Assembly: GCA_015231405.1 (NCBI GenBank)
Contig: JADGBR010000001.1
Location: forward strand, 5,859-69,858
DNA length: 64,000 nt
Source of the DNA: Candidatus Omnitrophota bacterium
GTDB taxonomy: Bacteria > Omnitrophota > Gorgyraeia > Tantalellales > Tantalellaceae
Direction: 5' to 3'
This document shows positions 3,118-62,814 of the stretch, one piece after another. The notes under the pieces are model-generated. The model saw nothing but the letters and a program-made list of their open reading frames with translations. It was not told the origin of the DNA and ran no database searches. Each line of letters opens with the position of its first letter. Position 1 is the first letter of the stretch. Both the position numbers and the translations under genes were made by a program.

Positions 3118-3159
3118 TTTACCCGATAGCGGATATAGGAACCGTTGATACTTTTACTA

Positions 3160-3187
3160 AACGCTAACCGCTAACCGCTGTCCGCTG
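3160..3187. repeat. degenerate heptamer tandem array (AACGCTA ACCGCTA ACCGCTG TCCGCTG)
   Basis: Four consecutive 7-nt units read directly in the intergenic spacer. Confidence 0.7.
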
Positions 3188-10821: not shown

Positions 10822-12056
10822 GGAGGACAAAGTTATGGCAAAAGCGAAATTTGAAAGAAATAAACCGCATATGAACATAGGGACGATCGGACATGTTGAC
10901 CATGGGAAGACATCGCTGACATCCGTGATAACTATGTATCTCGCCAATAAAGGCATGGCGGAAAGAAGGAACTATGACACGATCGACAAGGCTCCGGAAG
11001 AAAGGGAAAGAGGCATAACGATCGCGGTCGCGCATGTTGAGTATGAGACCGTGAAAAGGCATTATGCGCACATAGATTGTCCGGGTCACGCTGACTACAT
11101 CAAGAACATGATAACGGGCGCGGCGCAGATGGACGGGGCTATACTGGTAGTGTCGGCCGCGGACGGTCCGATGCCGCAGACGAGGGAGCACATACTTCTT
11201 GCCAGGCAGGTCAACGTGCCTGCGATAGTCGTGTGTATGAATAAAGTGGACCAGGTAGACGATCCGGAGCTTTTGGACCTTGTGGAGCTTGAGGTGAGGG
11301 AGCTGTTGAATAAGTACGGTTTCCCCGGCGACACGACTCCGATAATAAAGGGAAGCGCGCTAAAGGCGCTTGAGGTTGAAGGAGCGGTCGACAGCCCGCA
11401 CTGCAAATTCATCCAGGAGCTGATGGACGCGTGCGACGCGTTCATACCGCAGCCGGTCCGTGAAATAGAGAAGCCGTTCCTGATGCCGATAGAGGACATA
11501 TTCAGCATAACGGGAAGAGGCACCGTCGCCACCGGCAGGATCGAGAGGGGCCAGGTTAAGGTCGGCGAGGAAATAGAGATAGTAGGAATAAAGGACACGG
11601 TCAAGTCGGTAGTCACGGGAGTCGAGATGTTCAGGAAGATACTTGACTCGGGTCAGGCCGGAGATAATGTCGGGATACTTTTAAGGGGTATAGATAAGAC
11701 GAACCTGGTAAGAGGGCAGGTATTAGCCGCGCCGGGTTCGATAAAGCCGCACAAGAGGTTCAAGGCGTCGATATACATACTGTCGAAAGAGGAAGGCGGA
11801 AGACATACGCCGTTCTTCGCGGGATACAGGCCGCAGTTCTACATAAGGACGACGGACGTGACGGGTATGACGAAGCTGCCCGCGGGCGTGGAGATGGTAA
11901 TGCCGGGCGACAACATAGCGCTCGAGATAGAGTTGATAACTCCCGTCGCGCTCGAGAAAGAGCTGAGGTTCGCGATAAGGGAAGGCGGTCATACGGTAGG
12001 GGCCGGAGTTATATCGGAGATTTTGGAATAAGCTCTCAGCCATCAGCTGAAAGCTA
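10822..12056. repeat. tuf-containing duplicated segment, copy 1 (~1.2 kb, near-identical to 26131..27365)
   Basis: Identical 398-aa products and identical antisense ORFs; identity runs from the AGGAGGAC RBS through the GCTCTCAGCCATCAGCTGAAAGCT trailer. Confidence 0.85.
10835..12031 (+). CDS. tuf: elongation factor Tu (copy 1)
   Basis: GHVDHGKT P-loop, [12 protein letters not shown] motifs; 398 aa. Confidence 0.97.
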
Positions 12057-26130: not shown

Positions 26131-27365
26131 AGGAGGACTTGTTATGGCAAAAGCGAAATTTGAAAGAAATAAACCGCATATGAACATAGGGACGATCGGA
26201 CATGTTGACCATGGGAAGACATCGCTGACATCCGTGATAACTATGTATCTCGCCAATAAAGGCATGGCGGAAAGAAGGAACTATGACACGATCGACAAGG
26301 CTCCGGAAGAAAGGGAAAGAGGCATAACGATCGCGGTCGCGCATGTTGAGTATGAGACCGTGAAAAGGCATTATGCGCACATAGATTGTCCGGGTCACGC
26401 TGACTACATCAAGAACATGATAACGGGCGCGGCGCAGATGGACGGGGCTATACTGGTAGTGTCGGCCGCGGACGGTCCGATGCCGCAGACGAGGGAGCAC
26501 ATACTTCTTGCCAGGCAGGTCAACGTGCCTGCGATAGTCGTGTGTATGAATAAAGTGGACCAGGTAGACGATCCGGAGCTTTTGGACCTTGTGGAGCTTG
26601 AGGTGAGGGAACTGTTGAATAAGTACGGTTTCCCCGGCGACACGACTCCGATAATAAAGGGAAGCGCGCTAAAGGCGCTTGAGGTTGAAGGAGCGGTCGA
26701 CAGCCCGCACTGCAAATTCATCCAGGAGCTGATGGACGCGTGCGACGCGTTCATACCGCAGCCGGTCCGTGAAATAGAGAAGCCGTTCCTGATGCCGATA
26801 GAGGACATATTCAGCATAACGGGAAGAGGCACCGTCGCCACCGGCAGGATCGAGAGGGGCCAGGTTAAGGTCGGCGAGGAAATAGAGATAGTAGGAATAA
26901 AGGACACGGTCAAGTCGGTAGTCACGGGAGTCGAGATGTTCAGGAAGATACTTGACTCGGGTCAGGCCGGAGATAATGTCGGGATACTTTTAAGGGGTAT
27001 AGATAAGACGAACCTGGTAAGAGGGCAGGTATTAGCCGCGCCGGGTTCGATAAAGCCGCACAAGAGGTTCAAGGCGTCGATATACATACTGTCGAAAGAG
27101 GAAGGCGGAAGACATACGCCGTTCTTCGCGGGATACAGGCCGCAGTTCTACATAAGGACGACGGACGTGACGGGTATGACGAAGCTGCCCGCGGGCGTGG
27201 AGATGGTAATGCCGGGCGACAACATAGCGCTCGAGATAGAGTTGATAACTCCCGTCGCGCTCGAGAAAGAGCTGAGGTTCGCGATAAGGGAAGGCGGTCA
27301 TACGGTAGGGGCCGGAGTTATATCGGAGATTTTGGAATAAGCTCTCAGCCATCAGCTGAAAGCTG
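26131..27365. repeat. tuf-containing duplicated segment, copy 2
   Basis: See copy 1; one synonymous difference noticed (GAG at 11300..11302 vs GAA at the corresponding codon). Confidence 0.85.
26144..27340 (+). CDS. tuf: elongation factor Tu (copy 2)
   Basis: Protein identical to copy 1; canonical position after fusA. Confidence 0.97.
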
Positions 27366-27382
27366 TTAGCTGTTAGCTAAAC
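27341..27382. repeat. degenerate heptamer tandem array (GCTCTCA GCCATCA GCTGAAA GCTGTTA GCTGTTA GCTAAAC)
   Basis: Six 7-nt GC....A units immediately after the tuf stop; the shorter homolog after tuf copy 1 is at 12032..12059. Confidence 0.7.
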
Positions 27383-27395
27383 AGGAGTAAAAGTA

Positions 27396-43009: not shown

Positions 43010-45625
43010 ATGACGATGGATAGCATAACTCCGATGATGCAGCAGTATCTGGAGATCAAGAAACTGCACTCTGATTCCGTCCTTTTCTTTAGGTTAGGGG
43101 ATTTTTACGAAATGTTCTTTGACGACGCAGTCCAGGCCAGCCGTATCCTGAATATCACGCTTACTTCCAGGGGCGTATCCGAAGGGAAGAAAGTTCCCAT
43201 GTGCGGCATCCCTTTTCACGCGGCGGATAATTACATCTCGCGTCTTATCAGGAACGGCGAGAAAGTCGCCATTTGCGAGCAGGTCGAAGAGCCGTCTAAA
43301 GGAAAGAAAATAGTCAAACGAGAAGTCATCAGGATAATCACTCCCGGGACTTTTATGGCCGACGGCGCCGTTCTTGATTCCCGGAATAATTATGTTCTGG
43401 CGTTATGCTCCCAGGATAACAGATTCGGGTTCGCGTATGCCGATATCTCAACAGGGGAATTTCGGGTTACTGAGATAGAGAAGCGGGAGGACCTTTTTTC
43501 GGAACTGTATAAGATATCGCCGTCTGAATATCTTGTGCCGGAAAGCTTTTCTAAGGATAAGATATTCGCGGAGATAAAAGGCGCCTGCTCCGTACCCGCT
43601 ACCGTGTTTGAGGACTGGATGTTCAGTTTTGACCTCGCCTATAAGGAAATAACCGGCCATTTTAAAGTAAAGGACCTCTCCGGATACGGCTGCTCCGGCC
43701 TTAAACTCGCCACGAGCGCTGCGGGAGCCCTCCTAAAATACCTCAAGAACACACAGAAGAGCGATCTAGGCAATCTTGACGTAATATCATCTTACAGCGT
43801 AAGCCAGTATATGACCATGGACTGGAACTCCCATAGGAACCTTGAACTGATCGTCAGTATGGAGGACATGAGCGAAAGGGGGACCCTCATCGAGGTCTTT
43901 TCCGGCACAAAAACCCCTATGGGGAAGAGGATGCTGAAAAAATGGATACTTAACCCTCTTCTATCTCTCGAAGATATCCTCACCCGGCAGGGATCGGTTA
44001 AATGTCTGTATAACGAAAGGGAAAAAAGGGGCCGTATCGGGGAGCTTTTAGAAGGAATACACGACATAGACAGGCTATCCAATAAGGTAAGCCTGGAGTC
44101 GGCGAACGGGAGGGACCTTGTCGCTCTTTCGGCGTCGTTGAAACACGTTCTTTCACTGAAAAAACTCGCCTGGAAGGGATTGGGGGATAAACTGGAAGAA
44201 CTCTTTACAGGGCTTGACGACCCTACAGATATTATATCACTGATAGACTCGGCCATAGAAGATGAGCCTCCGGTATCGGTCAGGGAGGGCGGGCTCATAA
44301 AAAAGGGATATAACGTCGAAGTTGATGAGCTTCGTGAGATAGTTAAGGGTGGAAAAGACTGGCTGACAAGACTTCAAAAAAAGGAGATAGAAAAGACGGG
44401 CATTAACTCGCTTAAAGTCGCGTACAACCAAGTCTTCGGGTATTACATTGAGATCACTAACGCGCACAAAGGTTCGGTACCACACGACTATGTGCGCAAA
44501 CAGACGCTTGTGAACGCTGAGCGGTATATTACGGAAGAGTTAAAGGAATACGAATCGAAGATACTCGGCGCGGAGGATAAGATAAAGGCGCTGGAATATG
44601 AGGTATTTCTCGGGGTTAGGGGTAAGATAGGGATACACATTGAGAGCCTTAAAATGACGTCGTATATAGTCGCAGAGATAGATGTCCTCGCGAATTTCGC
44701 CGAGGTCGCCCAAAATAATAATTACGTGCCGCCGACCGTTACCTCAGGCGCAGGACTTAACATCAGGGAGGGGAGACATCCCGTAATAGAAAGGTTGTTG
44801 AAAGGCAAGGATTTCGTCCCTAACGACATAAGGATGGGAGGAGAGGACGGTAATATTTTCATAATAACGGGATCGAACATGGCCGGTAAATCCACGTATA
44901 TCAGGCAGGTCGCTCTTCTAGCCATCATGGCGCAGATGGGCAGTTTTGTTCCTGCCAAAGAGGCCGAGATCGGTATAGTCGACAGGGTATTCACGAGAGT
45001 CGGGGCATCGGACCGACTTTACAGAGGAATGAGCACTTTTATGGTCGAGATGCTTGAGACGGCCAATATCCTAAATAACGCGACTTCCCGGAGCCTCATA
45101 ATCCTTGACGAGATAGGGAGGGGGACGTCGACATATGACGGTGTTTCTATAGCCTGGGCTGTGGTCGAGTACCTGTACAGCAGGCTTAAAGGTTCGAAAA
45201 CGCTGTTTGCCACCCATTTTCATGAGCTCACGGAACTGTCGCATATGATGCCCGGGATAAGGAATTATCATCTTGCCATAAAAGAGTGGAAGGACGAGGT
45301 AATATTCCTTTACAAGGTTACCGAAGGCAGCTGCGACGAAAGTTTCGGCATCCATGTAGCTAAATTGGCAGGAATGCCTTCGGGTGTTGTGTCACGGGCC
45401 AGGGAGATACTGGGGAATCTTCAGAAAGACTCCCTTTCGGGGAACATGCTTCATAGATTCTCTCATGATGATATACGCAAAGAGAAGCAGCTAGACCTAT
45501 TTGAGGCCATTCCGGCTGTTAGCGCGGTCGAAATGAAAATAAAAAAGCTTGATATAGATAACCTTACTCCGGTCGAGGCGCTGCGTAAGCTGGCGGAATT
45601 GAAAGAGGAATTGGAGGGGGGGTAG
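43010..45625 (+). CDS. mutS: DNA mismatch repair protein MutS
   Basis: 871 aa; Walker A GSNMAGKST; mismatch-binding N-terminus. Confidence 0.95.
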   Translation: MTMDSITPMMQQYLEIKKLHSDSVLFFRLGDFYEMFFDDAVQASRILNITLTSRGVSEGKKVPMCGIPFHAADNYISRLIRNGEKVAICEQVEEPSKGKKIVKREVIRIITPGTFMADGAVLDSRNNYVLALCSQDNRFGFAYADISTGEFRVTEIEKREDLFSELYKISPSEYLVPESFSKDKIFAEIKGACSVPATVFEDWMFSFDLAYKEITGHFKVKDLSGYGCSGLKLATSAAGALLKYLKNTQKSDLGNLDVISSYSVSQYMTMDWNSHRNLELIVSMEDMSERGTLIEVFSGTKTPMGKRMLKKWILNPLLSLEDILTRQGSVKCLYNEREKRGRIGELLEGIHDIDRLSNKVSLESANGRDLVALSASLKHVLSLKKLAWKGLGDKLEELFTGLDDPTDIISLIDSAIEDEPPVSVREGGLIKKGYNVEVDELREIVKGGKDWLTRLQKKEIEKTGINSLKVAYNQVFGYYIEITNAHKGSVPHDYVRKQTLVNAERYITEELKEYESKILGAEDKIKALEYEVFLGVRGKIGIHIESLKMTSYIVAEIDVLANFAEVAQNNNYVPPTVTSGAGLNIREGRHPVIERLLKGKDFVPNDIRMGGEDGNIFIITGSNMAGKSTYIRQVALLAIMAQMGSFVPAKEAEIGIVDRVFTRVGASDRLYRGMSTFMVEMLETANILNNATSRSLIILDEIGRGTSTYDGVSIAWAVVEYLYSRLKGSKTLFATHFHELTELSHMMPGIRNYHLAIKEWKDEVIFLYKVTEGSCDESFGIHVAKLAGMPSGVVSRAREILGNLQKDSLSGNMLHRFSHDDIRKEKQLDLFEAIPAVSAVEMKIKKLDIDNLTPVEALRKLAELKEELEGG

Positions 45626-45642
45626 TTGTGGGGAAGACGTGT

Positions 45643-45670
45643 GTGGTTCGTTGATCGTGGTTCGTGGTTC
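45643..45670. repeat. degenerate heptamer tandem array (GTGGTTC GTTGATC GTGGTTC GTGGTTC)
   Basis: Read directly; inverted partner CGAACCACG at ~45705. Confidence 0.7.
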
Positions 45671-45750
45671 GGGAAGAAAATTGATCATACGTTATATTTG
45701 TTCAAACGAACCACGCATCACGATCCACGAATGTGACTAAGGAGTTGTCA

Positions 45751-47487
45751 ATGATTCGCAAGATACAAGTGCTGGCGGACGACGTTATAGCGAAGATCGC
45801 GGCGGGTGAGGTGGTGGAGAGGCCGGCTTCCGTGGTGAAGGAGCTCATCGAGAATTCACTGGATGCCGGCTCTGACAGCGTCGAAATAGATCTTAAGGAT
45901 GCCGGGTTCGCGCTTATAAGGGTCGCGGATAACGGGTCCGGTATGACGAGCGAAGAGGTGAAACTCGCGGTTAAGCGTCACGCGACAAGTAAGTTGAGCG
46001 CCATCCATGACCTGGAAACACTTTTAACATTCGGTTTTAGAGGAGAGGCTCTGTCGAGCATCTCCTCGGTTTCCAGATTCGAAATAACTACACGTAACGC
46101 CGATGGCGAGGCTGTTTACATGTATCTGGAGAATGGCCAGGTAAAGGAAGCTAGGCCCGCGGCGCGGGTTCCCGGAACGACAATTGAAGTCAAGGACCTT
46201 TTCTATAATGTCCCGGCGCGCAAAAAATTCATGAAAAAAGATTCGACCGAACTCGCGGCCGTTATCGATACCGTGGGGCGTTTCATTGTGGCGAATGACG
46301 GCGTGGAGATACGACTCAGGAACAACGGGCGGGAGATCTTCCACGCGCATAAGAACATGGGCATAAAGGCAAGGATATCTCTCGTCCTGGGAAGGGATGT
46401 CGCGGACGGGATGATAGAACTATTTTCCCTGACAGGGAAATACAGGGTGACTGGGTTCGTGAGCCGGCCATCCAGCACAAGGAAAGATAAACGGATGCAG
46501 ATGTTCTTTGTGAATAAACGTTATATAAGGAGCACTTTTATCAGCAATCTCCTTGATGAAGCGAACAGAAGTATGCTTGAAAGAGGCAGGTTCCCGGCGG
46601 GAGTGCTTTTTATCGAAGTCGATCCCTCAATGGTGGATGTCAATGTCCATCCTGCAAAGCTTCTTGTGAAATTCGAGGATGAGGATGAACTTAAGCGTTC
46701 GGTGATGTCTTCCGTAAGGTCAGCGTTCGACGAGGTCAAAAACAGAGAGAGAGGTTCTCACGGCCAGACATTATCCGAAGCCCTCGGATCGGCAGTACAA
46801 GCCCCAGGAGAGGAAAAACATGGGATATTCGCCGAAGGGATCGCTACACAGAGAGAGTTCGAATATGGCGCGGCCGATGAGATGATATCCGATAAAAAGC
46901 CTTTGGCGGATATCCCCCGTAAAACGTCCGATATCTATCAGATAGGTAAATGCTATATAGTGAGGGTTAAAGGGGACTCCGTTACCGTCACGGACCAGCA
47001 TGCGGCGCATGAGCGCGTTCTTTATGAGTATTTCAATAATAAAAAGAGGGAGACAGCCGGGGAGACTCAGAACCTTTTATTCCCTGTTAGTCTCGGGCTG
47101 TCTCCGTCCGAATCCATTTTAATGGGTAAAATGAAAGGAGCTTATAAGACCCTGGGGTTCGAGATAGATGAATTCGGGAGGAATTCGTTCGTGATAAGAA
47201 CCGCTCCTCAGGTCATTAAAGACCGGGACATAGAAAAAGTGGTCAGGGACATACTCTCGGATATTTCGGGGAATATTAAACCGGGGATGGACCCTGTCGA
47301 AGAAATGGTCAAATACGCGGCCTGCCGCGGCGCTATAAAGGAAGGCGACGCGCTTGACGAACACGAAATGGCTGATCTTTTGAGGCAGCTTTCGGAATGC
47401 GAACTCCCGTTCACATGCCCTCATGGGAGGCCGACTACGTTAGAGATAACGGTTGATGAGTTGGAGAAGCGGTTTAGACGGAAGTGA
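45751..47487 (+). CDS. mutL: DNA mismatch repair protein MutL
   Basis: GHKL ATPase N-terminus (IAAGEVVERPASVVKELIENSLDAG); AAGGAG RBS before ATG 45751 within ORF 45733..47487. Confidence 0.93.
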   Translation: MIRKIQVLADDVIAKIAAGEVVERPASVVKELIENSLDAGSDSVEIDLKDAGFALIRVADNGSGMTSEEVKLAVKRHATSKLSAIHDLETLLTFGFRGEALSSISSVSRFEITTRNADGEAVYMYLENGQVKEARPAARVPGTTIEVKDLFYNVPARKKFMKKDSTELAAVIDTVGRFIVANDGVEIRLRNNGREIFHAHKNMGIKARISLVLGRDVADGMIELFSLTGKYRVTGFVSRPSSTRKDKRMQMFFVNKRYIRSTFISNLLDEANRSMLERGRFPAGVLFIEVDPSMVDVNVHPAKLLVKFEDEDELKRSVMSSVRSAFDEVKNRERGSHGQTLSEALGSAVQAPGEEKHGIFAEGIATQREFEYGAADEMISDKKPLADIPRKTSDIYQIGKCYIVRVKGDSVTVTDQHAAHERVLYEYFNNKKRETAGETQNLLFPVSLGLSPSESILMGKMKGAYKTLGFEIDEFGRNSFVIRTAPQVIKDRDIEKVVRDILSDISGNIKPGMDPVEEMVKYAACRGAIKEGDALDEHEMADLLRQLSECELPFTCPHGRPTTLEITVDELEKRFRRK

Positions 47488-47490
47488 CTT

Positions 47491-47546
47491 GTGTGGTTCC
47501 CGCCTTCGCCAGGGCTTCGGCGGGCAGGCGTGATTCGTGTTTCGTC
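47491..47546. repeat. dispersed ~50-nt structured element, copy A (GTGGTTCCCGCCTTCGCCAGGGCTTCGGCGGGCAGGCG...)
   Basis: About 85 percent identical to 49144..49200; contains CCTGCC...GGCAGG inverted repeat. Confidence 0.7.
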
Positions 47547-47606
47547 TGGAAAGGTTGGATACGGTGCCGAATCACGAACCACGAACGGGTAATTGTTAAT
47601 GGTGTT

Positions 47607-48251
47607 ATGAGGATGGATAAAAAGAAAACGCAAAAGATATATAAGGTTTTAACGGAGAACTACTTCCATGAGGAGGCGTTCCTTGTGAATTCTAATCCTT
47701 TCCAGCTGCTTGTCGCTACGATACTTTCGGCGCAGTGTACGGATAAGAGGGTAAATATGGTGACTCGGGACCTGTTTAAGAAATACAGGACCGTCAAGGA
47801 TTACGCCTCGGCTGACCAAACAGCTTTTGAGAAAGATATAAGGTCTACGGGATTTTACAGGAATAAAGCTAAGAACATAATATCCGCGGCAAATATAATA
47901 ATAAAGCAATACGGCGGAAAGGTGCCGAATACGATGGATGAGTTGGTGACTTTGCCTGGAGTGGCCAGGAAAACGGCTAATATCGTGCTTTTTCACGGTT
48001 ACGGGAAGCGCGAAGGTATTGCCGTAGACACCCATGTCAAGAGAGTCTCTTACCGTCTTGGGATGACAGGCGAGACCGATCCTGTAAAGATAGAAAGGGA
48101 CCTTATGGCGCTGTTCAGCGAGGATAAATGGGGACGTTTGAACAATCTAATTATAGAGCACGGCCGTAAGATCTGCGACGCGCGTAAGCCATTGTGCACG
48201 GAGTGTGTTCTTGAGAAGTTATGCCCGAAGGCCGGAGTTGATGAAAAATAG
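47607..48251 (+). CDS. nth: endonuclease III
   Basis: HhH-GPD fold and C-terminal [4Fe-4S] cluster CDARKPLCTECVLEKLCP. The ORF-track N-terminus (47484..) is encoded by the repeat element, so the start is placed at MRMDKKK. Confidence 0.85.
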   Translation: MRMDKKKTQKIYKVLTENYFHEEAFLVNSNPFQLLVATILSAQCTDKRVNMVTRDLFKKYRTVKDYASADQTAFEKDIRSTGFYRNKAKNIISAANIIIKQYGGKVPNTMDELVTLPGVARKTANIVLFHGYGKREGIAVDTHVKRVSYRLGMTGETDPVKIERDLMALFSEDKWGRLNNLIIEHGRKICDARKPLCTECVLEKLCPKAGVDEK

Positions 48252-48285
48252 GTTAGGCGTGAGGGGAGAATTTGTTTAGGATACA

Positions 48286-48327
48286 GAATATTGAATTCAG
48301 AATCCAGGATCCAGAATACCGAATGAG
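48286..48327. repeat. degenerate heptamer tandem array (GAATATT GAATTCA GAATCCA GGATCCA GAATACC GAATGAG)
   Basis: Six 7-nt units immediately upstream of the SIMPL gene RBS. Confidence 0.7.
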
Positions 48328-48336
48328 GAGGGGGAG

Positions 48337-49131
48337 ATGAAGAAGTTACTTGCTTTGGTTTTTATTACGGGTGTTATCATTTGCTATCCGGGTCCTGCGT
48401 TTTCAGAGGGGGATGTTGACCCTCTCGCCAGGAACCTTGTTTTTGTGGAAGGGGAAGCTGAGGTGCTAGTGCCTGTAGATGGATTCAGCCTCACCATGGG
48501 TTTTGACGTCGATAGGGCCAGTTTCGGTGACGCAGGCGGTGCGTCGGATGAGATCGTTTTTCGGATGGAAAGAGAGATAAAAAGCCTCGGGCTCGAGAAC
48601 GTTGAGGTCATAAAGGGATGGGATATCGTAAGACAAAAAATGATAGCGTTCGGCGAAAAAGGCCGGAAAGTCTCAAATAAACTGGTTATAAGGGTTTATG
48701 ACTGCCCGCTGGAAAAACTTCACAGGATGATAGCTGACGCCATGGATAAATGCCTGGCGGTAGATAAATCAGTGATGATCGAGGAGATCAGCGTAATATT
48801 GAAAGATGAACTCGAGAACGAAAAAAAACAGGAAGCTTCCATAAAAGCCGTAGCCGCTATGGATAAAAATGCTTTACGAATAGCAGAGACCCTGGGAAAA
48901 AAGATCTCCGCCCCGAAAAGGATATTTTTCTCGAACGATAAACACGCGCTTCAAAGCAGGAACGATTTCATGGGGTATGGGGAAGACTACAAAGCAAGAC
49001 AGAATTATGAGGTAGAGGCGGAGCTATCAAGAAGCGTTGTCTCGATCCAGAAGAGTTTCAAAGTGAGGTCAGAGGTGGTAGACCATATTAAGATAAAGTC
49101 CAGGGTATCTGGGATATACGAGATCGAATAA
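48337..49131 (+). CDS. secreted SIMPL-domain (DUF541)-like protein
   Basis: Signal peptide; LVFVEGEAEVLVPVDGFSLTMGFDV resembles the SIMPL N-terminal pattern. Confidence 0.4.
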   Translation: MKKLLALVFITGVIICYPGPAFSEGDVDPLARNLVFVEGEAEVLVPVDGFSLTMGFDVDRASFGDAGGASDEIVFRMEREIKSLGLENVEVIKGWDIVRQKMIAFGEKGRKVSNKLVIRVYDCPLEKLHRMIADAMDKCLAVDKSVMIEEISVILKDELENEKKQEASIKAVAAMDKNALRIAETLGKKISAPKRIFFSNDKHALQSRNDFMGYGEDYKARQNYEVEAELSRSVVSIQKSFKVRSEVVDHIKIKSRVSGIYEIE

Positions 49132-49142
49132 GGAGGGTTTTC

Positions 49143-49976
49143 GTGGTTCGTGATCCGTGGTCCCTGCCTTCGCCAAGGCTACGGCGGGCAGGCGGGGTTC
49201 GTTATTTTCTGGTTGTTTGTCTGGCAGCTCTAGCGGGGCTGTGTTCCGGTTGCGCGAAAGAGGCGTCCAGCGAGAACAATGTCTATCTGGTCAGGTCGGT
49301 CGCGGACGGCGATACGATAGAGCTACAGGACGGCAGGAGAGTCCGGTATATAGGGATCGATACTCCTGAAACGAGGAATAAGGTCGGAGGGCAATGGGTA
49401 TACGATCCCGAAGAATACGCTGAAGACGCTAAAAAATTCAACGAGTCCCTTGTCGGCGGGAACAAGGTCAGGCTTGAATTTGATGCGGAGCGAAAAGATA
49501 AATACGGCCGGGATCTCGCGTTCGTTTACACCGACAACGGCCTTATGGCCAACGAGGAGCTGGTCAGGGAAGGATATTCGCTTGTGTATTATCTTTTGCC
49601 TAACAGAAAACATCTTGAAGGGTTCATGGAAGCCCAGAGGACTGCCATGGAAAATAAGGCCGGTTTGTGGAAAGGGATAAAAGTCATAACTCCGGACGAA
49701 GCGGGGAAATTATCCTGGGGATATTGCGTGGTCAGGGGCAGGGTGAATTACAGCGGAAGGGAAGGTAGAGGTTCTTTCACCATAGGGTTTGATGGAGAAA
49801 AAGAGAATTCATTAAAATGCATTATTCCCGCGAGGAATCTTCCATTGTTTAAAGAATTCGGAGTGGATCCCGCCATAGATTACACCGGAAAAAATGTCGA
49901 AATAACGGGAAAGGTAAAGAAAGGCGGAAGTCCTGTTTTAATGATCGTGCATCCTTATCAAATTAGGGTCCTCTGA
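49143..49976 (+). CDS. thermonuclease (SNase-like), exported
   Basis: SNase core RSVADGDTIEL...RYIGIDTPE...GRDLAFVY; hydrophobic N-terminus; the 5' end overlaps repeat element copy B so the true start is uncertain. Confidence 0.65.
   Translation: MVRDPWSLPSPRLRRAGGVRYFLVVCLAALAGLCSGCAKEASSENNVYLVRSVADGDTIELQDGRRVRYIGIDTPETRNKVGGQWVYDPEEYAEDAKKFNESLVGGNKVRLEFDAERKDKYGRDLAFVYTDNGLMANEELVREGYSLVYYLLPNRKHLEGFMEAQRTAMENKAGLWKGIKVITPDEAGKLSWGYCVVRGRVNYSGREGRGSFTIGFDGEKENSLKCIIPARNLPLFKEFGVDPAIDYTGKNVEITGKVKKGGSPVLMIVHPYQIRVL
49144..49200. repeat. dispersed ~50-nt structured element, copy B
   Basis: CGTGGTTCGTGATCCGTGGTCCCTGCCTTCGCCAAGGCTACGGCGGGCAGGCGGGGTTCG. Confidence 0.7.
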
Positions 49977-51458: not shown

Positions 51459-51535
51459 AGCTATCAGCTTTCAGCCTTCAGCTGTCAGCTTTAAGAAGAA
51501 ACATTAATGCTGAAAGCTGATAGCTGAAAGCTAAC
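51459..51535. repeat. eleven-unit heptamer array forming a 17-bp perfect inverted repeat (AGCTATCAGCTTTCAGC ... GCTGAAAGCTGATAGCT)
   Basis: AGCTATC AGCTTTC AGCCTTC AGCTGTC AGCTTTA AGAAGAA ACATTAA TGCTGAA AGCTGAT AGCTGAA AGCTAAC; lies between leuC and leuD. Confidence 0.75.
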
Positions 51536-54967: not shown

Positions 54968-54988
54968 GGTGCGTAAAGATATATATGT

Positions 54989-55044
54989 GCTTCGTGGTTC
55001 GGGATTCGTGGTTCGCGAGGAAAAAGCTGATAGCTGAAAGGTGA
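54989..55044. repeat. degenerate heptamer array (GCTTCGT GGTTCGG GATTCGT GGTTCGC GAGGAAA AAGCTGA TAGCTGA AAGGTGA)
   Basis: Contains both the GTGGTTCG and AGCTGATAGCTGAAAG words seen elsewhere. Confidence 0.7.
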
Positions 55045-55740: not shown

Positions 55741-55923
55741 GGGATCCACATGGAGTCATCCCGGACGCGAGCCTCGCGAGCGAGCCGGGATCACATGAAA
55801 ATAATATTTTTATTTGATCCCCGCTTTCGCGGGGATGACAGTTTATACTTTGATGTTTAAATAGTTGTTAACAAAACCGGTAGATTGTACTATAATCGAA
55901 CAAACGAATAACAGGAGGACGAT

Positions 55924-56427: not shown

Positions 56428-56439
56428 GCAGATAGCTAG

Positions 56440-56640
56440 TACACACAGGCGATCGAAAGATCTTAATAGGGAAGTCCGTTAGATCCGGACACGGTCCCGC
56501 CGCTGTTACCGGGGACGAAAGCCCGCTAGTCGATTTATGACTAAAGAGGCCACTATCCGAAAGGATGGGAAGGCCGGGGCAAGTAGAATGATCCGGAAGT
56601 CAGAAGACCTGCCTGGTGTGACAATAGATGTACGGGTCGT
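56440..56640 (+). promoter_or_regulatory. cobalamin (B12) riboswitch aptamer
   Basis: AATAGGGAAGTCCG...GATCCGG...GGTCCCGCCGCTGTTACCGGGGA...GCCACT... and B12 box AGTCAGAAGACCTGCC at 56598..56613, matching the RF00174 consensus. Confidence 0.8.
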
Positions 56641-56688: not shown

Positions 56689-56727
56689 CCCCTGGTATCT
56701 TAAATTGGTGCCAGGGGATTTTTTTTA
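56689..56727 (+). terminator. riboswitch expression-platform terminator
   Basis: CCCCTGG / CCAGGGG stem followed by ATTTTTTTT; sits between aptamer and receptor start. Confidence 0.7.
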
Positions 56728-56761
56728 CCCGGCTTATGCGGACAAAATTAAAGGAGAAGAG

Positions 56762-58921
56762 ATGAAAAAGACGTCGTTATTTTTGATCGGGATGCTAACC
56801 TTTTCGGCCACAGCTTTCGCGGGGACAGACTCAGCGAACAAGTTCCGGGTAACGGATATACTCAAAACCCCGGCCAAAGCTATCTTAGCTCCGGTTAACG
56901 GCGGCGGCCTCGTCGATCTTGTCCTAAAACCCACGGACCTCCTCTTCGCCCCGGTGATCGACTTAGGCGAAGTAGTTGTGACCCCGTCCCGGACGCCCGA
57001 GTATACGTATAATGTTAACAAAAATGTTACGGTAATTAATAACGACGACATCCGTAACGCTAAACCAAGATATTTGCAGGATGTGCTTGCCAGGGAAAAT
57101 AATGTCGTAATGAATGGGCTTCTTAATAACGCCAAGGATAATAAGCTGGACCTCAGGGGGTTTGGGGACTCGGCTAATATGAATTATCTTGTGCTCGTGG
57201 ACGGAAGGAGAACTAATCAGATAGATCTTTCCGGGCCGGATCTCGCGCAGGTGGACGTGAATTCCATCGACAGGATCGAGATAACGCGTGGTCCCGGCAC
57301 TGTCCTTTACGGGGATAACGCGACCGGCGGGGTTATCAACATAATCACTAAAAAACACGTTGACGGGCATCATATTGAATATTCTCAGGAGATAGGGAGT
57401 TACAAATATTTCAAGGAGTACGTCTCGGCCAGCGGCCGTGAAGAGTTCATGGATTACTATGTCAGTTATTCGCCTCAAAGCTCACGGGGTTACAGACTTA
57501 ACAGTTCCTATAAAGCTGACGATATATGTTCGAATATGACAATTAGACCCGCGGAGTATTTTAATATGGGCCTTTCTTCGGGTTTCCACAGGGACTGGTA
57601 CGGTCAGCCAGGGGCTCTTTACGATGGCAATATCCAGAGCGACGGCAGGGACGGGACGCGTTTTCCCGATTCCAAGGCCAAAGCTGAAGATCAGTATTTT
57701 ACGGTTGATCCTCAATTGATGGGGGAGATAAACGAACATGAGATCGTGCTGTCTTCGCTTATGTCATACAGGTTGCGGCGCGCCTCGTCACGTGATGTGA
57801 GCTTCAACGTTTATGAGACGGGGCATAATATCAGCTCTTACGATCTAAAGCCGAAGTGCGAGATCAATTCGAGCTTTCTGGATGATAGTGTCGAGAATAA
57901 GCTTGTGGCCGGCACTGATTATTTTTACGCAGGGGATCTGGCATCTTCCGGCGACGTAGCGTTCACCAAATCCGAACTCAAAGCGGAAAAGAGGACTTTC
58001 GGTGTATATGCCTCTGATAATGTAATGATCAATAGAAGGTTGATCCTTAACGGCGGGGCCCGCGTCGAATGGGCCGGTTATTCATTTGACCAGTCAAAGC
58101 CCGCTCCCGGGCTTAACGAGCGCAAACTCCAGGATGCTGCTTTCGAGGCCGGGATCGGGTATAAATATAACGAAAAGTCCCAGATATACTTTGACTCATC
58201 GAGGTCATACAGGTTTCCTGGTACTGACGAGTATTTCCAGTCGGCCTACGAGTCTTTCGACTGGTGGACGTTCACGACAAGGGTGTTCCCCTCAACGTTG
58301 AACACCGATCTCGAACAACAGACCGGCAATAATTACGAGTTGGGGATAAAGGACCATTCGTTCGAGTTTTTCAGGTTGAACGCGGATTATTATCTGATGA
58401 ATATCAGAAATGAAATACTGCTCGATCCGTATACTCCCGAAAATCCCGTTAACGATAAGAACGTTAATTATCCTCGCACTACTCACCATGGCCTGGAATT
58501 TGACGCAAAGATAGATATTTTCGATAAGGCAACCCCCTTTGTGAAGTACACCTACGAGAAAGCGTTCTTTGTCGGCGGTAAATACGCATCAAAGACAATC
58601 CCGCTGGTTCCGGAGAACAAGATAGTAACGGGAGTGGATATTGCACCCGTTGACGGTTTGGACCTGTCATATACGGTCAACTTTCTCGGATCACGTTATG
58701 CCGCGAATGATATGACAAATACGGCGTCCAGGATAAAATCCCATGTGACAAGCGACATATCGGCTTCATATGAGTATTCCAACGTCAGGATCTTCGGCGC
58801 GATCAGGAATATCTTGAACCAAAAATATCTGACCAACGCTACAAAGAACTTCGCCGGCAATATAGCGTTCTATCCCGCTCCCGGGATCAATTTCGAATGC
58901 GGTATAAGTGTAGTATTTTGA
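56762..58921 (+). CDS. TonB-dependent outer-membrane receptor (BtuB-like)
   Basis: AAAGGAGAAGAG RBS before ATG 56762, signal peptide, plug motif IDRIEITRGPGTVLYGDNATGGVINIITK, C-terminal aromatic residue (F). Confidence 0.85.
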   Translation: MKKTSLFLIGMLTFSATAFAGTDSANKFRVTDILKTPAKAILAPVNGGGLVDLVLKPTDLLFAPVIDLGEVVVTPSRTPEYTYNVNKNVTVINNDDIRNAKPRYLQDVLARENNVVMNGLLNNAKDNKLDLRGFGDSANMNYLVLVDGRRTNQIDLSGPDLAQVDVNSIDRIEITRGPGTVLYGDNATGGVINIITKKHVDGHHIEYSQEIGSYKYFKEYVSASGREEFMDYYVSYSPQSSRGYRLNSSYKADDICSNMTIRPAEYFNMGLSSGFHRDWYGQPGALYDGNIQSDGRDGTRFPDSKAKAEDQYFTVDPQLMGEINEHEIVLSSLMSYRLRRASSRDVSFNVYETGHNISSYDLKPKCEINSSFLDDSVENKLVAGTDYFYAGDLASSGDVAFTKSELKAEKRTFGVYASDNVMINRRLILNGGARVEWAGYSFDQSKPAPGLNERKLQDAAFEAGIGYKYNEKSQIYFDSSRSYRFPGTDEYFQSAYESFDWWTFTTRVFPSTLNTDLEQQTGNNYELGIKDHSFEFFRLNADYYLMNIRNEILLDPYTPENPVNDKNVNYPRTTHHGLEFDAKIDIFDKATPFVKYTYEKAFFVGGKYASKTIPLVPENKIVTGVDIAPVDGLDLSYTVNFLGSRYAANDMTNTASRIKSHVTSDISASYEYSNVRIFGAIRNILNQKYLTNATKNFAGNIAFYPAPGINFECGISVVF

Positions 58922-62779: not shown

Positions 62780-62814
62780 AGTTGTCAGTTGTCAGTTGTC
62801 GGTTACTGGTTGGT
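62780..62814. repeat. degenerate heptamer array (AGTTGTC x3, GGTTACT, GGTTGGT)
   Basis: Read directly after the TonB-like gene stop. Confidence 0.7.

Follow-up and report, generated by a model that had tools for sequence, protein, structure and literature searches.

We analysed a window of 64,000 nt from a Candidatus Omnitrophota bacterium (contig JADGBR010000001.1, assembly GCA_015231405.1), in which two copies of a short GC-rich repeat lie beside the genes for endonuclease III (nth) and for a thermonuclease-family lipoprotein. In our assessment both repeats are probably copies of a non-autonomous and very small mobile insertion of 30 nt, carried as a mobile or insertional passenger. The unit belongs to a family of hairpin inserts of 30 nt that crosses phyla and has apparently not been described before. 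The first-pass annotation, made from the letters of the window, had proposed a mobile or regulatory element resembling a repetitive extragenic palindrome (REP) or a MITE (miniature inverted-repeat transposable element). A small, dispersed, hairpin-forming and apparently mobile element is what we also find, spread more widely than that annotation could see, but it is neither a REP nor a MITE in the strict sense.

The direct repeats at 47493-47538 and 49157-49202 share 87% identity across 46 nt, in line with the two elements of about 85% identity described before. A degenerate core pattern allowing up to three mismatches matched twice in the window, against 0.00 matches expected from 100 dinucleotide-preserving shuffles. 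The element had been given a length of about 50 nt, which proved too long. The conserved core is a GC-rich unit of 30 nt, CCCGCCTTCGCCAAGGCTWCGGCGGGCAGG, with sharp edges: among about 140 copies from other genomes, conservation sets in suddenly at CCCG and stops with CAGG(C), and the outer positions are random. Copy 1 (CCCGCCTTCGCCAGGGCTTCGGCGGGCAGG) occupies positions 47499-47528 (47500-47529 is equally valid, a 1-nt ambiguity) and copy 2 (CCTGCCTTCGCCAAGGCTACGGCGGGCAGG) positions 49163-49192, both on the + strand, and the two differ at 3 of the 30 positions. The remainder of the repeat is heptamer array. The heptamer words said to flank both copies are indeed enriched, with 11 GTGGTTCGTG-like words in the window against 1.9 expected, a number reached in none of 100 shuffles. 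These words are grouped in four spacers (45643-45731, 47530-47587, 49143-49152 and 54987-55017).

The heptamers give the clearest picture of how each copy sits in its surroundings (all features on the + strand). Copy 1 is preceded directly by the word GTGTGGTT(C) at 47491-47498 and followed directly by (C)GTGATTC GTGTTTC GT at 47529-47546, and removal of exactly 30 nt leaves an unbroken heptamer phase, GTGGTTC GTGATTC GTGTTTC. An inverted heptamer arm, CGAATCACGAACCACGAAC, at 47568-47586 pairs with 47493-47499 and 47530-47537 across the unit. With the unit excised, this mutL-nth spacer forms a continuous stem of about 17 bp (-32.8 kcal/mol), of the same design as a unit-free twin in the mutS-mutL spacer, a hairpin armed with GTGGTTC heptamers at 45643-45731 (RNA fold -41.6 kcal/mol, z = -4.0), which served as an 'empty site' comparator. 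Since excision restores both the phase and the stem, copy 1 is a 30-nt insertion that interrupts the 5′ arm of a heptamer hairpin already in place. Copy 2 follows the array GTGGTTC GTGATCC GTGGTC at 49140-49162, which includes the nuclease start codon GTG 49143, and precedes (C)GGGGTTC GTTATTT at 49193-49207. Here too, excision of exactly 30 nt gives an unbroken phase, GTGGTTC GTGATCC GTGGTCC GGGGTTC GTTATTT. Another GTGGTTC array, at 54987-55015, holds no unit.

To characterise the structure of the unit, we used 26 distinct copies, namely the two window copies and 24 variants recovered by nhmmer in the retrieved loci. In the unit, a 6-bp GC stem encloses a conserved loop of 14 nt (TTCGCCRAGGCTNC) and is followed by a CAGG tail at the 3′ end. 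Secondary structure is conserved: the stem CCCGCC/GGCGGG (CCYGCC/GGCGGG, columns 1-6 with 21-26) is paired in 92.3% of cells, 14 of which are double changes, and its covariation score of 0.291, compared with 0.157, was equalled in 0 of 500 shuffles and was higher than in all slid controls. Compensatory changes affect the outer pair (C-G to T-A) and the fourth pair (G-C to A-T, T-A and C-G), although the C-G/T-A alternation mostly separates the subfamilies ...GGCGGGCAGG and ...GGCGGACAAG, so that independent events are fewer than cells. A different inverted repeat, CCTGCC...GGCAGG, had been assigned to both copies; it is present in copy 2 only, copy 1 reading CCCGCC, and family-wide it is paired in 62.8% of cells, below the shuffles. 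A fold of the minimum free energy type and a GCCTT/AAGGC mini-hairpin were also tried and did not rise above shuffles. The 14-nt loop and the CAGG tail are better conserved than the stem, and this conservation beyond the stem suggests that the unit is recognised in a sequence-specific manner.

The distribution of the unit was obtained by scanning GTDB, with one genome per species, for an exact pattern with 23 specified bases; host taxa are given as named in the sequence records. Among the matches listed, the unit occurs in at least 119 genomic stretches from about 14 phyla. The hosts include Verrucomicrobiota (with Opitutae, Udaeobacter and Kiritimatiellae), Lentisphaerota, Planctomycetota, Acidobacteriota, the Candidate Phyla Radiation (CPR) or Patescibacteria (Saccharibacteria, Peribacteria, Parcubacteria, Doudnabacteria and WWE3), Alpha- and Gammaproteobacteria, Myxococcota, Desulfobacterota, Bacteroidota, Chloroflexota, Actinomycetota, a cyanobacterium, Saganbacteria and Bdellovibrionota, the last through the isolate genome of Bdellovibrio sp. 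HCB288. The present window adds Omnitrophota. OZ245751.1 and NZ_CP178619.1 are examples of complete chromosomes with the unit. The unit is kept almost unchanged among phyla, in loci with a GC content from 28% to 72% and with flanks that are unrelated from genome to genome. It is also found exactly on 13 viral contigs of IMG/VR (L120-L132 in our numbering of loci), several of which are interrelated, with ORFs (open reading frames) common to L120, L123, L126 and L129. We found no match in PLSDB plasmids, GenBank phages or 5,426 Escherichia coli genomes (the DUST filter leaves the query unmasked), no Rfam match to the unit (whole window at the gathering threshold; 45500-49400 at E <= 10) and no match to it in a scan for tRNA and tmRNA. 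Searches of the full-text literature with the core DNA and its six-frame peptides returned nothing relevant. More copies from this lineage were sought in metagenomes with a GTGRTYCC-prefixed pattern, which gave four matches, all from unrelated high-GC organisms.

In other genomes, too, the unit is found in heptamer arrays and hairpins more often than controls. Strict period-7 repeats occur in the flanks of 12 of 123 unit copies and of 1 of 613 controls. The arrays that hold the unit are built of heptamers, occasionally of 8- or 9-mers, and their sequence is genome-specific. Exact heptamer direct repeats abut 9 of 139 copies (0.4% of controls), and the enrichment of direct repeats at the junctions peaks at k = 7, is weaker at k = 8-9 and is absent at k = 6. 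Moreover, 14 of 123 copies, against 4 of 613 controls, sit at the tip of genome-specific GC-rich inverted repeats. A fixed 7-bp target-site duplication was considered as a general rule and rejected, as it would cover 6.5% of copies only and is excluded by in-frame inserts of 30 nt. A different regularity is seen at the 3′ junction, where the adjoining bases repeat the first 1-6 nt of the unit (C, CC, CCC and so on) in 78% of copies against 29% of controls, and over at least 3 nt in 15% against 1.7%. The opposite junction gave no microhomology signal. From the sequences, the junction pattern fits either an insertion preference beside a C or template switching guided by microhomology. Some loci (L081, L027, L008 and L039) contain tandem unit arrays of period 30 and partial internal duplications. 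Head-to-tail period-30 arrays and unit-heptamer-unit arrays (AATTTCC-unit-AATTTCC-unit) were seen at L081 5616-5700, L027 1075-1140 and L019 3690-3760, and some of these are translated within the MurC gene of a Saccharibacteria metagenome-assembled genome (MAG). In CPR genomes, heptamer arrays are themselves read through inside essential genes, those for ValRS (L051 5602-7875) and MurC (L019), and give low-complexity peptides such as FQFSNKFQIPNSKFQK.

Many copies lie in coding genes, often in-frame within conserved ones. In loci below 55% GC, 18 of 34 copies are deep inside long ORFs, 12 in sense and 6 in antisense orientation, and nine of the 12 sense copies use the frame that reads LRQG[YF]GGQ. 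A genome with 28% GC carries the unit in-frame within FtsW and a Mur ligase, and further in-frame units were found in MurC, ValRS, ThrRS, CysS, PurH, Fmt, TsaD, a P-type ATPase and KatG. When KatG was aligned with 5l05 (about 85% identical), the unit corresponded to an exact gap of 10 residues, and CopA aligned with 3rfu likewise showed a 10-residue gap at the unit. None of the six reading frames of the unit contains a stop codon if its W position is T; with A there is one.

The age of such insertions could be approached in katG. Six katG orthologues, drawn from independent assemblies and about 85% identical at the nucleotide level, carry the insert at the same site (6/6), and the differences within it fall only at positions that vary family-wide. 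With the same site occupied in all six, sequence comparison makes this an old insertion that the clade has inherited vertically. Among the six loci, L136 has a second, antisense unit at about 1995-2025 (PPAHGSLGEGG), some 200 nt upstream of the older sense copy and with an A-T compensatory variant in its stem. This second copy is missing from L134 and L135, which are about 91% identical to L136, and from L133, L137 and L010, and judged by this pattern it is an independent gain in the same gene. These data also bear on another account of the two window repeats, that they reflect local duplication, gene conversion, two spacers that resemble each other by chance, or an artefact of assembly or sequencing. 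The window itself would allow it, with only two copies 1.66 kb apart. However, no chance matches are expected, an identical unit is present in at least 130 unrelated loci, including long-read MAG chromosomes and the Bdellovibrio isolate, and the same katG site is filled in assemblies from independent projects. The cross-genome copies and the katG data have already refuted this account, and we give it a negligible probability. The katG orthologues, the long-read MAGs and the isolate also argue against misassembly or contamination as the origin of the cross-phylum copies.

The genes around the two copies are all on the + strand: mutS (43010-45625), mutL (45733-47487), nth (likely true extent 47607-48251), a SIMPL/DUF541 gene (48337-49131) and the gene for the staphylococcal-nuclease-family lipoprotein (49143-49976). 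The first-pass annotation distrusted the start codons of both nth and the nuclease. For nth this was justified. When E. coli endonuclease III (2abk) is aligned with the ORF that begins at 47484, its residue 1 falls on ORF residue 44, and Nth homologues begin at ORF residues 42-44. On these alignments, the nth start is ATG 47607 or 47613 and the extension is an ORF-calling artefact, with 47484-47606 a non-coding spacer, which places copy 1 between mutL and nth. For the nuclease the suspicion did not hold: a Shine-Dalgarno sequence, GGAGGG, lies at 49132-49137, 5 nt before GTG 49143, this GTG is the only in-frame start ahead of the lipoprotein-type signal YFLVVCLAALAGLCSGC, and the NCBI record of a 100%-identical protein from a Candidatus Omnitrophica MAG, encoded on a contig of 490,973 bp, uses it as well. 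The start at GTG 49143 thus looks genuine. The first 17 codons comprise three heptamers followed by the unit, which in its equivalent phase (49164-49193) makes up codons 8-17 and encodes LPSPRLRRAG. On the same three grounds, copy 2 is probably translated as an extension of the n-region of the nuclease signal peptide. Seventeen nuclease homologues (38-47% identity) have short N-termini of the MK or MR type, lacking the LPSPRLRRAG residues.

The near-identical N-terminal peptides that had been called artefactual are VVPAFARASAGRR, from the nth ORF extension starting at GTG 47484, and VVPAFAKATAGRR, from a 70-aa ORF starting at GTG 49157 (49157-49369, carrying VPAFAKATAGRR), and they resemble each other in this one frame only. 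They are artefactual for nth, but they do not concern the nuclease, whose own frame gives a different peptide. That the repeat encodes a genuine N-terminal peptide common to Nth and the nuclease might be suggested by these two ORFs. It is nevertheless very improbable, given where the Nth homologues begin, that the 49157 ORF is out of the nuclease frame and has no Pfam content, and that elsewhere the unit is found in all frames and on both strands.

Regarding a possible function, the unit could be a selected RNA or DNA motif, such as a protein or RNA binding site, an mRNA-stabilising or processing hairpin, or a terminator or attenuator, and its spread would then reflect recruitment and not parasitism. 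The conservation of loop and tail above that of a covarying stem, the near-invariance among phyla and in the katG clade, and the position of both window copies just past a stop codon within an operon would all agree with this. In addition, unit positions 2-13 of copy 1 (47500-47511, CCGCCTTCGCCA) are the exact reverse complement of the segment TGGCGAAGGCGG of E. coli 16S rRNA, which to our knowledge is conserved among bacteria; copy 2 at 49164-49175 reads CTGCCTTCGCCA, with one mismatch. The 16S match is a post-hoc observation with a naive chance of about 0.004-0.01. Intergenic copies are found in both orientations relative to their neighbours, roughly 13 sense and 19 antisense on a crude gene map, and for that reason an antisense-RNA role is unsupported. 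The same orientation data speak against a functional motif in general, as do the copies deep within unrelated housekeeping genes, about half of those in low-GC loci, with no functional theme common to the host genes. Neither a U-tract nor a flank is conserved, Rfam gave no family even at E <= 10, and the + strand folds of the unit-bearing window spacers are no better than shuffled (z = -0.27 and -0.48). An intrinsic terminator was rejected on the grounds that positions beyond +26 are unconserved, copy 1 has no T-run and copies occur in both orientations. Near copy 2 the terminator scan returned only a different, weak stem at 49183-49203, and promoter and terminator predictions over the window were not above those of shuffled sequence. 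We therefore regard a selected functional motif as unlikely, and the regulatory part of the earlier proposal was not borne out.

We searched for a mobilising gene linked to the unit by comparing 3,676 ORFs all against all from 132 loci of about 8 kb each, and no family was present in more than five loci. A search of 300-nt flanks for a longer parent element recovered only extra unit copies and true orthologues. Taking the two repeats as copies of a mobile insertion, we propose that the unit moves at the DNA level and, given that no linked gene was found, by factors acting in trans. Its targets would be DNA prone to single-strandedness or slippage, such as tandem heptamers and palindromes, beside a C and without a fixed target duplication. 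Two routes may be imagined, each of which we regard as possible at best. In the first, a hairpin-recognising single-strand transposase of the HUH/Y1 type encoded elsewhere would act as in the REP/RAYT system (RAYT, REP-associated tyrosine transposase), although the unit lacks the GTAG or CGTC tag and the short loop that define REPs, and no RAYT adjoins it in the 132 loci. In the second, template switching during host replication would use C, CC or CCC microhomology at the junction; this would need no dedicated enzyme and would account for the minimal CPR genomes, the junction microhomology and the partial duplications. In the mutL-nth spacer, one copy split the 5′ arm of an existing heptamer hairpin and would so give the spacer transcript an extra GC-rich branch. 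In the nuclease gene, the other added 10 codons to the n-region of the signal peptide, which would become longer and more basic, and would form a stable hairpin about 20 nt past the start codon. The local role of the unit is most likely that of a passenger, limited to such side effects.

Several points weigh against the proposal of a mobile passenger. Neither a mobilising enzyme nor a donor copy was identified, and the mechanism is wholly inferred. Near-identity across phyla is unusual for REP-like parasites and hints at constraint or function. In the katG clade the unit is undecayed, with 3 of about 31 columns variable, and a comparison of four-fold sites (3/9 variable in the insert, 163/294 outside; p = 0.31) gave no significant sign of extra nucleotide-level constraint. 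The copies examined in this genome are the two of the 64-kb window, and the counts for other genomes are lower bounds, since they come from the matches listed and 23 exact bases were required. A more far-reaching version of the mobile-insertion proposal, which we put forward as possible rather than probable, is a pan-bacterial module. In this version, a hairpin of 30 nt, near-identical in about 14 phyla whose members range from CPR-like genomes of 28% GC to Acidobacteria of 72% GC, would spread without an enzyme of its own or a linked one. It would rely either on universal host machinery, for instance through template switching where slipped or hairpin DNA has C-runs, or on a broadly conserved factor still to be discovered. 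That interaction would keep the sequence fixed, for which the exact complementarity of the 5′ half to 16S TGGCGAAGGCGG may be a clue, and the unit would be a source of 10-residue inserts in essential proteins and a partner or seed of intergenic heptamer arrays.

The window contains ten tandem arrays of period 7 in total, at 3157-3179, 27361-27378, 45643-45671, 47568-47586, 48293-48317, 49140-49161, 51459-51492, 51509-51532, 54987-55015 and 62780-62804. They are built of at least five different heptamers (CTAACCG, AGCTGTT/AGCTTTC, GTGGTTC, GAATCCA and AGTTGTC), and all ten are located in short spacers of co-directional genes, mostly immediately 5′ of the ribosome-binding site. Some form inverted pairs and hence hairpins. 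The ORFs 10835-12031 and 26144-27340, of 398 aa each, look by sequence like duplicate tuf (EF-Tu) genes, and each is followed by the same GCTCTCAGCCATCAGCTGAAAGCT heptamer spacer (12032-12055 and 27341-27385) ahead of the next gene. A different 30-nt GC-rich palindromic block, CCCGGACGCGAGCCTCGCGAGCGAGCCGGG, is present in an AT-rich spacer at 55760-55789, together with a hairpin, CCCCGCTTTCGCGGGG, at 55819-55834. These two blocks may be another family of mini-inserts; no further copy of the first was found in the retrieved unit loci or in IMG/VR. A cobalamin riboswitch (Rfam RF00174, 90.3 bits) lies at 56430-56630, upstream of a 738-aa ORF (56705-58921).

If the mobile-insertion proposal is right, few known mobile DNAs would be as small as the unit and, as far as found, none would be so widely shared. 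For annotation, it would be a source of spurious ORFs and false N-termini, as at nth. It would equally create genuine 10-residue insertions, which are seen here in the nuclease and in other genomes in KatG, CopA, aminoacyl-tRNA synthetases and FtsW. For assembly and binning, a 30-mer common to unrelated genomes could cause chimeric joins. It would also offer a handle on the long-unexplained origin of tandem heptamer arrays and on the "very small mobile repeats" of Elhai, a phenomenon that would then no longer be limited to a single family of cyanobacteria but take in much of the domain Bacteria. The invariance of a parasite-like 30-mer would point to a universal partner, or else to uncultured bacteria among which horizontal spread is very active.

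The closest analogues of the unit are the cyanobacterial SDR elements and the REPs. As reportedly described by Elhai et al. in 2008, SDR1-8 of Nostocaceae are very small mobile repeats of 21-27 nt that encode no protein and form a hairpin with compensatory changes. They are said to lie often within arrays of tandem heptamers or inside other hairpins and to show signs of mobility by presence and absence. The unit resembles these reported features in being a tiny dispersed repeat with a covarying hairpin, signs of mobility, no protein and a context of heptamers and hairpins. It is set apart from the SDR descriptions by its length of 30 nt, its GC-richness, its occurrence in about 14 phyla with hosts that are not Nostocaceae, and its frequent in-frame position in genes. 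PMC5861425 states that no SDR was found outside Nostocaceae, and the SDR paper is cited there and in PMC3116915.

REP and REPIN families are palindromes tagged with GTAG or CGTC that are associated with RAYT transposases (PMC3733652, PMC3116915), and the window repeats could be an ordinary family of this kind moved by a RAYT of this organism. The unit has the matching format of a GC-rich stem-loop in the 20-40-nt range with many dispersed copies and, at one end, four unpaired nucleotides as a tag (CCTG when read on the reverse strand), inverted unit pairs occur in some genomes (L077 and L103), and occasional intragenic REPs are known (PMC3733652). REPs are believed to move in single-stranded form with the help of enzymes acting in trans, and we propose the like for the unit. 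However, its tag CAGG/CCTG is neither GTAG nor CGTC, and its conserved loop of 14 nt differs from the very short loops of 2-5 nt in most REPs (PMC3733652). No Y1 transposase, RAYT or other recurrent gene adjoins the unit in the 132 loci. REP families are specific to a species or genus and mainly extragenic, whereas the unit has the same sequence in about 14 phyla, among them the CPR with its tiny genomes, and many of its copies are intragenic. We consider an ordinary REP family quite improbable.

MITEs have terminal inverted repeats and target-site duplications of fixed length and typically measure 50-500 bp. The unit differs in its 30 nt and in its variable junction repeat of 0-6 nt of a C-run, with heptamer repeats flanking 6.5% of copies. 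The GC clusters of yeast mitochondria and the 'byp' elements are short GC-rich hairpin mobile inserts of AT-rich organellar genomes, coding regions included, and thus share with the unit their size class, composition, hairpin and presence in genes. Byps break the reading frame and are bypassed by the ribosome, whereas the unit keeps the frame, has no stops and is presumably translated; both the GC clusters and the byps are moreover organellar and eukaryotic. Another class of tandem heptamer repeats is formed by the cyanobacterial STRR sequences. Rickettsia palindromic elements (Ogata et al. 2000, as listed in PMC3184786), in-frame inserts of about 105-146 bp in coding genes of Rickettsia only, are similar palindromic selfish repeats, inserted in-frame and tolerated as an extra peptide. 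The difference lies in size and range, 30 nt (10 codons) in a pan-bacterial unit against about 105-146 bp in Rickettsia. Finally, intergenic TAACTGA heptamer repeats have been described from Beggiatoaceae, cyanobacteria and Bacteroidetes, in short spacers upstream of start codons (PMC4679880), and heptanucleotide elements from Geobacter metallireducens (PMC2700814). The ten period-7 arrays of the window, in short spacers upstream of starts, resemble the TAACTGA repeats, and such arrays host both units. Those papers describe the arrays without a GC-rich insert; the heptamers vary by genome, whereas the unit is constant.

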